NCBI RefSeq assembly: GCF_051903065.1 | Contig: NZ_CP178438.1 | Source of the DNA: Escherichia coli | Lineage (GTDB): Bacteria > Pseudomonadota > Gammaproteobacteria > Enterobacterales > Enterobacteriaceae | Reading direction: 5' to 3' (one strand) | Length of the DNA: 64,000 bases | Made by a program: the position numbers | Shown here: piece by piece, positions 1 to 3,000 of the stretch | How the letters are laid out: each line of letters starts with the position of its first letter | Numbering within the stretch: position 1 is the stretch's first letter

Positions 1-3000
1 CAATATTAGCATTAAGTAATGCGGCAAGGGCGAATCCGGAAGAATTTGCTACCCCTGAGACAGTTATTATCTGATCAATATAGATATCAATTCTTGGCTG
101 CTCATTGGTCCATCTTTTTGCCTGAGAAGCTGGAAGGGTTGAAATATATCCTATCGTGGTTCCGGCATAACCAGGAACATTGCAACCAGGGCCTAATGTT
201 ATTTCATGAACTGTATAGTCCTCAACAGGATCGAAAGGGCTCTTCATAAATAAGTTTAGCCGTAAACCTTCTGCTAACTCTGTAGCAGCATGCGCCTTTT
301 TACATATACCACCATATATTTCGTCTAAAGCTGAGGTGATTTTCAAGTTTCGATAGAGCATACGTCCTGTTGTTGTAATACCATTGAATTCTCTGCATGT
401 ATCTGTCACATAATTAAATGGCCAGGACTGTTTGCCAATATTAAGTTTTCTAATTTCGACAACGCTTTTTCCATCGTAATTATGGTTATTGCTACGAGCA
501 AGAGGCAGAAGATAGATATTTTCCGTATCCATGCGTGCATATTCATATCGACGTGTTAACTCATTGTCGACTTTTGGGTGATGAAGGAAGTGATTATCTG
601 TAATAATTTGACTCTGAAGGGTATTGCTTAATGGCATAGACATAATAGTTACCTTTTATGAGTATTTCACTGATGTTTAGAAAAATAGATAAATTTTTCT
701 GTAGTAAAAAGAGAAGTAAACAAATGACATGCATGTTTCTGTTGTAGTGATATCAACTCTACACAGTGATATTAAAGGGTAGGAAACACTCTAAAGTATC
801 AAAAAACGCTCATTTAAAATTATTTGCATGCAATTTAAAAGCATATCTTATTACTGGTAATGACTCCAACTTATTGATAGTGTTTTATGTTCAGATAATG
901 CCCGATGACTTTGTCATGCAGCTCCACCGATTTTGAGAACGACAGCGACTTCCGTCCCAGCCGTGCCAGGTGCTGCCTCAGATTCAGGTTATGCCGCTCA
1001 ATTCGCTGCGTATATCGCTTGCTGATTACGTGCAGCTTTCCCTTCAGGCGGGATTCATACAGCGGCCAGCCATCCGTCATCCATATCACCACGTCAAAGG
1101 GTGACAGCAGGCTCATAAGACGCCCCAGCGTCGCCATAGTGCGTTCACCGAATACGTGCGCAACAACCGTCTTCCGGAGCCTGTCATACGCGTAAAACAG
1201 CCAGCGCTGGCGCGATTTAGCCCCGACATAGCCCCACTGTTCGTCCATTTCCGCGCAGACGATGACGTCACTGCCCGGCTGTATGCGCGAGGTTACCGAC
1301 TGCGGCCTGAGTTTTTTAAGTGACGTAAAATCGTGTTGAGGCCAACGCCCATAATGCGGGCTGTTGCCCGGCATCCAACGCCATTCATGGCCATATCAAT
1401 GATTTTCTGGTGCGTACCGGGTTGAGAAGCGGTGTAAGTGAACTGCAGTTGCCATGTTTTACGGCAGTGAGAGCAGAGATAGCGCTGATGTCCGGCGGTG
1501 CTTTTGCCGTTACGCACCACCCCGTCAGTAGCTGAACAGGAGGGACAGCTGATAGAAACAGAAGCCACTGGAGCACCTCAAAAACACCATCATACACTAA
1601 ATCAGTAAGTTGGCAGCATCACCCTTATTACTAATTGGAATTTGATGTTGCTATATTGAGGTCTATATTAATAATGCCTGTGAATGGTATTTTTGATGTA
1701 TTTGATATGTTATTAATTTATATTATTTACAAACTAATTGTTTCAAATAATACATAGATGATTATGCGGAAATAAATAATTTCCCACCGGAATTAAGTAG
1801 CAGCGGTGACAAGTATTTTCATCTACGTAACTATTCGGAATATTCAGAATATACTAGCGGTTTTTTTTTGAGTTTGATGATTTTTATCAAATCATGACTT
1901 TTTTCCTGAAAAGTCAGTAGATATTCATAGGCAAGTAAGGTTTTATACTTTGCTGACAGGATTCAGGCCTGTCTCAGACTGACATGGATGTAATGAACAA
2001 AAGGGAATGGCTATGGAAAATGAGCATCAATACAGTGGTGCCCGGTGTTCAGGGCAAGCCGCATATGTTGCTAAACGTCAGGAGTGCGCAAAATGATGCG
2101 CCAATCACTTCAGGCTGTTTTACCTGAAATTTCAGGAAATAAAACGTCATTGCTGCGTAAATCGGTATGCAGCGATCTCCTCACTCTTTTTAATTCTCCT
2201 CATTCGGCATTACCGTCATTACTTGTTTCAGGCATGCCCGAGTGGCAAGTGCATAACCCGAGCGACAAACATCTCCAGAGCTGGTATTGCCGTCAGCTGC
2301 GTTCTGCACTGTTATTTCATGAGCCACGGATTGCGGCGTTGCAGGTTAATTTGAAAGAAGCGTACTGCCACACGCTGGCGATCAGCCTTGAGATAATGCT
2401 GTACCACGACGATGAACCGCTAACGTTTGATCTGGTCTGGGATAATGGCGGTTGGCGCAGTGCGACGCTGGAGAATGTCAGCTAAGCACAATCTCCAGCT
2501 CGCGCAGTTCACGCCAGAAGCGTTCGGCAACTGGATTCATGCGGGTATTCATCCGGTATGCGTAGGCCTGAATCGGGATCACCAGTTCGTCCCGATTCAG
2601 CACAACGAGCTGCCCGCTGCGAATTTCTTGTTGGATGGCATACTCCGGCAGCCAGGCAATCCCACAGCCGTCGAGGGCAACCTGCTTTAAAAGCTCGCTC
2701 ATCGAAGAGACAAAAAAGGTGCTAAAACTTAACTCACTGTGGCGCGTCAGGGTGCGATTAATCAATCGCCCCATGTAGGAGTTGCGGCTGTAATTCAGTA
2801 ACGGAAAGTGTGGCTGCGCGAGGTTAAAAAGCGCTTCTCCGTGTTCGTCACTGGCGCAGACAGGGAACAATTGAGATTCAAATAAGCGAATGTGGTCAAA
2901 CGGCGCTTCCAGCAAGTCTTCGTCGTGAAAGGAAAAAATACAGTCACTTTGCCCTTCACGCAGTTTATCGACTGCTTCATCAACATCAATGGCTTCAATT

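Follow-up and report, generated by a model that had tools for sequence, protein, structure and literature searches.

IraD blocks RssB-mediated degradation of RpoS, and the locus described here raises the question of whether an IS1 element upstream of iraD alters iraD expression and, through it, the stability of RpoS. The locus lies near the left end of a 64,000-nt stretch of Escherichia coli DNA (contig NZ_CP178438.1, RefSeq assembly GCF_051903065.1), which we refer to as the window. The first-pass annotation had reported a complete 768-bp IS1 with a perfect 9-bp target duplication at 847-1632, in the divergent spacer between yjiC and iraD. Both the element and its context were recovered in the present analysis, with IS1 at 856-1623, CTTATTACT on both sides of it, and the whole placed between the start codons of yjiC (ATG at 643) and iraD (ATG at 2093). 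A literature search on IS1 at iraD or yjiC found nothing relevant.

A complete IS1 between yjiC and iraD

The element is exactly 768 bp long, is of the IS1A type and lies on the minus strand, where RefSeq annotates an IS1A family transposase with programmed frameshift. IRR is at 856 and IRL at 1623, and insA and insB' read toward yjiC. Its termini, GGTAATGACTCCAAC... and ...GTTGGCAGCATCACC, form canonical IS1 inverted repeats with 18 matches in their first 23 positions, and the element thus has the length (~768 bp) and the imperfect terminal repeats (~23 bp, GGTRATG...CCAAC) of the IS1 family. The insA frame (1293-1568, minus strand) encodes 91 aa with a zinc ribbon and an HTH domain (Pfam Zn_ribbon_InsA and HTH_Tnp_IS1) and is followed in the -1 frame by insB' (871-1374, minus strand; Pfam DDE_Tnp_IS1), and the three profiles PF03811, PF12759 and PF03400 all scored far above the cut-off. 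The slippery A6C motif (AAAAAAC) for the -1 programmed frameshift from insA to insB' lies at minus-strand positions 1311-1317 and begins at nucleotide 307 when IS1 is numbered along its sense strand. Inside the IRL end, a consensus scan called a promoter-like site on the minus strand at 1589-1616 (CTGCCA, 16-nt spacer, TATGAT), which we take to be the insA promoter that IS1 carries in IRL; it is directed toward yjiC and away from iraD. This IS1 is the only copy in the 64-kb window, and its sequence is 100% identical to IS1 copies of SCU-172 and BE311. The element is intact and, judged by its undamaged reading frames and ends and by this identity, probably still mobile.

The 9-mer CTTATTACT occurs only twice on either strand of the window, as the left copy at 847-855 and the right copy at 1624-1632 (-469 to -461 from the iraD ATG). 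IS1 produces direct target duplications of 8 or 9 bp (PMC12428005), and the two copies here against one in empty sites follow this rule. Alignment with K-12 and other E. coli spacers, which the first-pass annotation had proposed as a check, showed an uninterrupted site with a single CTTATTACT in 4,882 of the 4,895 complete genomes compared, K-12 included. Among ~4,895 complete E. coli genomes with this locus, the exact IS1 junctions were found in only two (RefSeq assemblies 23CRST031 and 23CRST027), a frequency that contradicts fixation in the lineage, which the same annotation had named as one ground against a regulatory role. A larger set of 213 genomes that appeared to share the insertion was rejected; most of them carry another IS1, between uxuR and the yjiC 3' end, with the duplication ATATAATTC (for example in ATCC 8739), which the search had wrongly joined to the flanks of the present site. 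The genomes S1 and 510016 were likewise discarded as further carriers, both having empty sites into which the alignments extended by chance. An internal stop annotated in hpaG of 23CRST031 is absent from the window.

Because uninterrupted genomes have only one CTTATTACT, this is a simple insertion and not an assembly artefact. The host lineage does carry ~36 IS1 copies, with 37 IS1 places each in 23CRST027 and 23CRST031, and repeats of this sort are a classic source of misassembly. Misplacement of a copy by the assembler is nevertheless extremely improbable, given the perfect 9-bp duplication around an element of exactly 768 bp, the identical junctions in two independent complete assemblies and in the window, and the presence of exactly one copy of the 9-mer in the empty site. 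IS1 entered by ordinary simple transposition mediated by InsAB', in which a 9-bp staggered cut gives rise to the 9-bp duplication. The insertion is recent, as judged from two duplication copies that have not diverged and from the rarity of the allele.

Position of the insertion relative to the iraD promoters

Of yjiC (DUF2686 family; 1-643, minus strand, start codon 641-643), only the 5' part is inside the window, whose left boundary cuts the gene; it was identified from alignment with K-12 and from the RefSeq entry for NZ_AP045800.1, a near-identical genome. From the yjiC ATG, the left duplication is 203 bases away and the IS1 end 212, the distance given originally having been ~210 bp. On the other side, 460 native bases separate the right duplication from the iraD ATG, where the earlier figure was ~470 bp; that figure understated how near the element is to the distal promoter P1, as only 18 bp lie between the IS1 boundary and the P1 -35 box, and the boundary is at position -53 from the P1 start. 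The right duplication covers -52 to -44 relative to this start.

The published starts of P1 and P2 are at -417 and -137 from iraD (10.1101/2021.05.20.444958) and are spaced by 280 nt (PMC5574718). In the window, P1 occupies 1642-1676 on the plus strand, with TTGATG at 1642-1647, a 16-nt spacer, TATATT at 1664-1669 ending 7 nt before the mapped start, and the start G at 1676 (-417); the P2 start is at 1956 (-137), also on the plus strand. RefSeq annotates two small leader ORFs on this strand, ytiC (27 aa here, 1674-1757) and ytiD (1754-1897), which are transcribed together with iraD from P1, and ytiC is described as lying upstream of iraD and co-transcribed with it (PMC11228462). Further downstream are the putative DnaA box, with published sequence and position -81 (10.1101/2021.05.20.444958), found as TATGGAAAA at 2012-2020 and reading TTTTCCATA on the minus strand, and idlP (2013-2096, plus strand), a 27-aa leader peptide translationally coupled to iraD (PMC5574718). 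The iraD gene itself, supported by its ORF and by RefSeq annotation, is intact at 2093-2485 on the plus strand and encodes the 130-aa anti-adaptor that stabilizes RpoS. Downstream of 1632, all of these elements (P1 core, P2, DnaA box, CsrA/idlP leader, iraD) are intact and identical or nearly identical to those of K-12, and no indels relative to K-12 were found by alignment from the insertion point to iraD. That transcription of iraD might begin downstream of 1632 had been raised in the first-pass annotation as part of a case against its own proposal, and both starts (1676 and 1956) do lie there. An Rfam scan of the window gave symR as the sole match, with none near the insertion.

What the insertion changes is the sequence upstream of P1. 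Native DNA beyond position -52 of P1, including the 212 bp of yjiC-proximal spacer, is now 777 bp farther off, and a block of 52–60% GC stands in its place. At the distal UP-element position (-57 to -47), 5 of 11 bases changed from AT-rich to GC-rich through IS1, and alignment with K-12 showed no change in the P1 core or at the proximal UP position (-46 to -38). P1 is the chief iraD promoter in late-log phase and responds to DNA damage, and ytiC, the first gene transcribed from it, is the most strongly AZT-induced gene of K-12, with a 260-fold increase (PMC11228462, 10.1101/2021.05.20.444958). Reporter fusions starting at -498 were expressed and regulated (PMC5574718), an endpoint 29 bp upstream of the insertion point and 81 bp upstream of the P1 start. 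The DnaA and SspA work used the whole 672-bp spacer (10.1101/2021.05.20.444958), and among published dissections of P1 we found none covering the sequence upstream of -498.

A local IS1 hot spot upstream of P1

The insertion is one of several. At least five independent IS1 insertions, in both orientations, are found inside 26 bp (-474 to -449 from the iraD ATG). The IS1 of 20KM2222 (-468 to -460) and that of cM2a (-474 to -466) have the same orientation as the window copy and are 1 and 5 bp away from it, and mapped junctions place those of SCU-172 and F5656C1 at -457 to -449 and -458 to -450. The junctions in these four genomes are distinct on both sides, and because such alleles have different duplications they represent independent events. 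Five to six of the 10–11 independent insertions in the 672-bp spacer fall in -474 to -449, a clustering with p of ~2e-4 to 2e-3 by scan statistic under a uniform null and <=6e-3 with a strongly AT-weighted null. With distinct junctions only a few base pairs apart and a density above chance, the 26-bp zone upstream of iraD P1 is a local IS1 hot spot. Each hot-spot allele is carried by one or two genomes. Other IS1 insertions or IS1-bounded deletions at the locus affect the P1 -10 box, the P1 start, P2, ytiD, iraD or yjiC, and altogether ~0.7% of complete E. coli genomes have an IS1 insertion or IS1-bounded deletion in the spacer.

The spacer has a GC content of only 27–30% and is listed, from K-12 ChIP compilations, as a ‘promoter island’ bound by H-NS. 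AT-richness alone does not account for the hot spot, which is 78% AT compared with a maximum of 90% at about -394, and the clustering persisted under the AT-weighted nulls. IHF sites and similarity to IS1 ends are determinants of the IS1 hot spots of pBR322. No match of at least 8/9 to the IHF consensus WATCAANNNNTTR was found near the site, the sole 8/9 match in the spacer being at -208, and likeness of the target to IS1 ends was also rejected as the cause, because the best matches (10/13) are elsewhere in the spacer. Moreover, IS1 was involved in each of the 13 genomes that have a disruption within ±70 bp of the site, and another IS family in none, which favours a target preference specific to IS1. 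The clustering more likely reflects preference of IS1 for the DNA of this spacer than selection.

Possible effect of the insertion on iraD expression

In our preferred reading, to which we give a probability of about two in three, the window carries an ordinary recent IS1 insertion in a recurrent hot spot, the clustering results from target preference, iraD is still expressed and regulated, and any effect is probably modest. Expression and regulation of iraD would be maintained, and P1 output, and with it RpoS stability, would shift modestly if at all, in either direction. A consensus scan of 560-2120 called no hybrid outward promoter across the IRL junction; it called only the promoter that faces inward in IRL and the P1 hexamers of the native sequence, and the best outward candidate at the junction (TTGGCA at 1610-1615 with TAATTG) was not called.

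A partial loss of function could be imagined if the AT-rich DNA upstream of -52 held UP-like or activator sequences. Their loss would weaken the induction of P1 by ppGpp, SspA or DNA damage and lower IraD and RpoS in late-log phase. Bases -57 to -53 of P1 and everything further upstream were indeed replaced by IS1, P1 is the main late-log promoter and strongly inducible (ytiC 260-fold with AZT), attenuation of the RpoS pathway is common in natural isolates, and many natural alleles of the locus knock out P1, P2 or iraD, from which it is evident that reduced IraD is tolerated. However, the fusions with no more than 81 bp of DNA ahead of the P1 start were active and regulated, the proximal UP position and P1 core are unchanged, and P2 is untouched, so we consider this partial loss of function unlikely. 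The target of relevance might instead be yjiC, altered by read-through from insAB' or by the loss of upstream control sequences. insA and insB' are co-oriented with yjiC, the IS1 end is 212 bp from the yjiC ATG, one study found a yjiC transposon mutant to be deficient in biofilm formation, and yjiC is induced 11-fold by AZT (PMC11228462), which suggests that control sequences may be common to it and P1. Against this, yjiC keeps 212 bp of native upstream DNA, and the hot-spot insertions in the opposite orientation do not have the yjiC-directed geometry. The IS1 promoter is, in addition, weak and repressed by InsA, and IS1 is polar, and an effect on yjiC therefore seems very unlikely to be what matters here.

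The recurrence of insertions could also be a product of selection. A GC-rich IS1 would break an H-NS filament over the spacer and derepress P1 and possibly yjiC, raising IraD and stabilizing RpoS. The spacer is the reported H-NS-bound promoter island; a paper citing Battesti 2012 reports that H-NS inhibits IraD expression; the recurrent insertions, in both orientations, lie just upstream of the P1 -35 box and preserve the core promoter; and insertion of IS1 ahead of bgl is known to activate that operon (PMC11043490), an event that derepression here would parallel. Yet at the same locus other alleles have lost the P1 -10 box, the P1 start, P2 or iraD itself to IS1, the opposite direction of effect, the hot-spot alleles are rare without sign of a sweep, and the site is hit by IS1 alone and never by another IS family, pointing to target preference. 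Adaptive derepression is thus improbable in our assessment. Improbable too is that the 26-bp zone is a recurrently selected tuning point, at which IS1, in either orientation, uncouples P1 from the H-NS-bound or yjiC-side half of the spacer in natural E. coli lineages and resets IraD-dependent stabilization of RpoS; were this true, iraD, with the promoter-destroying and iraD-deleting IS1 alleles of the locus also counted, would be a previously unrecognized hot locus at which the general stress response varies in nature, acting at a step before the familiar rpoS polymorphisms.

Taken singly, the window copy is an ordinary IS1 insertion with all mapped control elements intact. Because ~0.7% of genomes have IS1 events in the spacer, several of them losing P1, P2 or iraD, control of IraD is repeatedly exposed to variation driven by IS1, through either target bias or selection. 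The alleles destroying P1, P2 or iraD show that altered iraD expression is tolerated in nature, where it could be favoured.

Comparison with known IS1 insertions

In structure, the element is not different from the canonical IS1 (IS1A/IS1 family) of E. coli K-12, sharing the 768 bp, the ~23-bp imperfect repeats, the A6C-joined insA and insB', the IRL promoter, the 9-bp target duplication and the liking for AT-rich targets; it differs in location only, the yjiC-iraD site of K-12 being empty. The other natural alleles of the locus (20KM2222, cM2a, SCU-172, F5656C1, Esc20, the 3347558 group and others) involve the same element family in the same spacer, but several of them split or delete P1, P2 or iraD, and the window allele spares all three. 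Work by Prentki et al. in 1986 is said to describe hybrid promoters made by IS1 ends, in which an IS1 end is likewise near a promoter region. Unlike in those cases, IRL here offers no outward -35 element at 16–18 bp from a usable -10 in the flank, and the P1 hexamers are kept.

The IS1 and IS5 insertions upstream of the bglGFB promoter, which activate this H-NS-silenced operon, are alike in that IS1 lies in a narrow zone of an AT-rich regulatory region, here reportedly H-NS-bound, just upstream of an intact core promoter and in that the hits are recurrent, independent and in both orientations. IS insertions upstream of flhDC likewise activate an H-NS-silenced operon. The bgl-type geometry is present in the window, with IS1 in an AT-rich region upstream of an intact P1, the H-NS binding being known from K-12 and not from the host strain. 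However, bgl is cryptic and silenced by H-NS, whereas iraD P1 is functional and inducible, and the yjiC-iraD locus, unlike bgl, also bears IS1 alleles that destroy promoters and genes.

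The IS1 element and its genomic setting

Every testable defining feature of IS1 was found in the element at 856–1623, which is complete (768 bp): its ends are the canonical inverted repeats, with 18 of the first 23 positions matching, insA (1293–1568, minus strand) gave Pfam matches to Zn_ribbon_InsA and HTH_Tnp_IS1, the insB frame (871–1374, minus strand) matched DDE_Tnp_IS1, and the two frames are joined by an A6C slippery motif. The 9-mer CTTATTACT flanks the element at 847–855 and 1624–1632 and has no further occurrence on either strand of the whole 64-kb window. We ran the alignment with K-12 and other E. 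coli spacers that the first-pass annotation had proposed; because the site in K-12 and thousands of other genomes is uninterrupted and holds a single copy of this 9-mer, the IS1 represents a simple transposition event. Coordinates, repeats and empty sites agree with the earlier description of a complete 768-bp IS1 with a perfect 9-bp duplication in the spacer between yjiC and iraD.

In the RefSeq annotation, from which gene order was taken, yjiC (ATG at 643, minus strand) is followed by IS1, ytiC (1674–1757), ytiD (1754–1897), idlP (2013–2096), iraD (2093–2485), hypT and iadA. Across positions 600–2100, identity is 99.9% to 23CRST027 and 100% to E. coli 23CRST031, an isolate from human faeces in Ecuador. 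When all 64 kb are compared with 23CRST031, four SNPs and an additional IS903-like element set the window apart; it thus belongs to a very close relative of that strain, whose 37 IS1 places indicate an IS1-rich lineage. The IS903-like element (14339–15395, 1057 bp, IS5 family), absent from the near-identical 23CRST031, contains a 322-aa DDE transposase ORF at 14371–15339, is bounded by a perfect 9-bp duplication ATAAGGAGT at 14330–14338 and 15396–15404, and is located directly upstream of an SdiA-regulated-domain gene (minus strand, end ~14277), adjoining a pentapeptide-repeat gene. One of the four SNPs, at 49466, is in hpaG (48426–49715, minus strand): the window has an intact frame of 429 aa, whereas the 23CRST031 gene carries an internal stop and is annotated as a pseudogene. 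The symR antitoxin RNA (26844–26920; Rfam RF01809, 91.7 bits) adjoins symE, and the surrounding ~26–34 kb is a variable ‘immigration control’ region: besides a type I restriction-modification cluster of variant form (hsdR/S/M-like), it holds one further restriction endonuclease gene and the toxin-antitoxin pair BrnT/BrnA.

Position of IS1 relative to the iraD promoters

The Lovett-lab preprint (10.1101/2021.05.20.444958) placed the iraD start sites at −417 (P1, distal) and −137 (P2, proximal) from the iraD ATG (window 2093), with a functional DnaA box at −81 and a yjiC–iraD spacer of 672 bp. The 280 nt between both starts was reported independently by Park et al. (2017, PMC5574718), whose active P1–P2 fusions started at −498 and whose P1 fusion spanned −547 to −413. 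Because there are zero indels relative to K-12 from the insertion point to iraD, this numbering transfers directly to the window, and P1 and P2 start at 1676 and 1956. By consensus scan the P1 hexamers are TTGATG (1642–1647) and, after a 16-nt spacer, TATATT (1664–1669), ending 7 nt before the mapped start. Hence the last IS1 base (1623) is P1 position −53, 18 bp upstream of the −35 box, and the P1 core, P2, the DnaA box (2012–2020), the CsrA/idlP leader and iraD itself are downstream of IS1 and intact. Within the neighbouring IS1 end, only the element's own IRL promoter resembles a promoter, and it faces yjiC and away from iraD; a hybrid-promoter model for the IS1–iraD junction was rejected, since the consensus scan predicted no outward hybrid promoter at IRL. 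The G at 1676 mapped as the P1 start belongs to the annotated start ATG of YtiC (1674–1676), so P1 transcripts cannot encode the annotated YtiC N-terminus; TGG-to-TAG at 1755–1757, an allele shared with strain cM2a, shortens the 33-aa K-12 YtiC frame to 27 aa.

IS1 alleles of the locus in natural E. coli

Junction-specific queries over 5,426 complete genomes, ~4,890 of which carry the locus, found an IS1 junction at or adjoining the window site in only four locus-bearing genomes, and a 140-bp empty-site query returned 4,882 intact and 13 disrupted sites. Further queries sought IS1 copies in and around the spacer regardless of orientation, 21 representative loci were fetched, and every IS1 boundary was mapped onto K-12 coordinates. 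Of the simple insertions, each flanked by a duplication of its own (positions relative to the iraD ATG), those upstream of the P1 −35 box have the window orientation at −469 to −461 (window, 23CRST027, 23CRST031), −468 to −460 (20KM2222) and −474 to −466 (cM2a), and the opposite one at −457 to −449 (SCU-172), −458 to −450 (F5656C1) and −457 to −450 (2014EL-1346-6, F5656C1 lineage and possibly one event with it). Opposite insertions were also mapped to the P1 −10 box (−429 to −421; Esc20 and one other), the P1 start site (−418 to −410; eight genomes of the 3347558 type), the spacer (−556 to −548; BE311, F41, K99S, EC24.26), ytiD (−270 to −262; KW21), the yjiC coding sequence (−702 to −695; Res13-PEA14-20) and the iraD coding sequence of two isolates, LCP22S3_I2 (+32 to +40) and strain 361 (+118 to +126); in 2406_w1 a same-orientation copy interrupts the iraD start codon (−4 to +3). 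IS1-bounded deletions remove yjiC with part or all of P1 and P2 (AR_0369, 730V1, 2018-18.25PC, AR_0061), yjiC alone (23CRST009) or iraD (LHM10-1, CP52E, two Res13-EB12-05-type genomes, PCP06238), and together with the iraD coding-sequence insertions they show that IS1-driven loss or rewiring of IraD control is recurrent. A separate IS1 with duplication ATATAATTC lies between uxuR and the yjiC 3′ end, in locus terms ~1.0 kb to the left of where the window begins (ATCC 8739, L002 2001–2768); most of the 213 genomes having IS1 close to the locus have this copy, and it is exactly here that several IS1-bounded deletions affecting yjiC and the iraD promoters (23CRST009, 2018-18.25PC) begin.

Clustering of insertions upstream of P1

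IS1 insertion at this site, and in the iraD control region generally, recurs in natural E. coli. Five independent insertions fall between −474 and −449 (window ~1619–1644 equivalent), or six if 2014EL-1346-6 is counted separately, from a total of 10 (or 11) in the 672-bp spacer; junctions that differ on both sides, together with differences in IS1 variant and flank allele, show that they are independent. Against a uniform null, 6 of 11 within 25 bp gives p of about 1.6e-4, 5 of 10 within 25 bp p = 1.7e-3, and 7 of 10 within 60 bp p = 3e-4; with a null weighted by local AT content raised to the 8th power, 6 of 11 within 25 bp still gives p = 6e-3. The three same-orientation events occupy −474 to −460 and the opposite ones −458 to −449. 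An IS1 boundary is present inside the spacer in ~32 genomes versus ~8 expected from average chromosomal IS1 density, shared ancestry inflating both numbers.

The spacer is AT-rich (27–30% GC), and K-12 ChIP data record it as an H-NS-bound ‘promoter island’ of 526 bp. Its AT maximum falls outside the hot spot, where neither an IHF consensus nor special similarity to IS1 ends was found, and these classical determinants do not account for its exact location. Two divergent transcription units flank the hot spot, both strongly inducible: AZT raises ytiC 260-fold and yjiC 11-fold (PMC11228462). Negative supercoiling driven by transcription may make this zone a preferred IS1 target, as may a bend that a protein induces immediately upstream of P1. 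That the cluster is instead a point at which selection tunes IraD/RpoS control seems improbable. Each of the 13 genomes with a disruption within ±70 bp of the site involves IS1, with no other IS family among them, and this IS1-only pattern favours target preference over selection.

Likely effect on iraD and yjiC

The first-pass annotation proposed that the insertion may alter iraD expression and thereby RpoS stability. The location upstream of iraD stands, and both mapped starts and all mapped cis-elements lie downstream of IS1, undamaged; this interpretation is partly supported. Fusions with just 81 bp 5′ of the P1 start were active and regulated (Park et al. 2017, PMC5574718), and P2 is untouched; thus iraD should remain expressed and the effect on P1 is probably modest. 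Its direction is uncertain. IS1 could break the H-NS-bound tract and derepress P1, for which IS1 and IS5 upstream of bgl are a precedent. Conversely, the DNA upstream of P1 −52 is displaced by 777 bp with a 52–60% GC element in its place, switching 5 of 11 bases at the distal UP-element position from AT-rich to GC-rich, and loss of native upstream DNA could lower P1 induction. Expression of yjiC, co-oriented with insAB′ and 212 bp away, could also be altered.

Comparison with known systems

The literature search turned up no description of IS1 at yjiC or iraD, and the window insertion was already present and annotated in RefSeq genomes. It is an ordinary IS1 insertion, and the modest addition made here is that IS1 has repeatedly targeted the iraD control region, this spot included, in nature. 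Insertion of IS1 or IS5 into H-NS-bound regulatory DNA occurs also at flhDC, a similar situation. The window IS1 likewise resembles the IS1 and IS5 insertions upstream of bgl (PMC11043490) in lying within regulatory DNA reported to be H-NS-bound in K-12, and may belong to that functional class.
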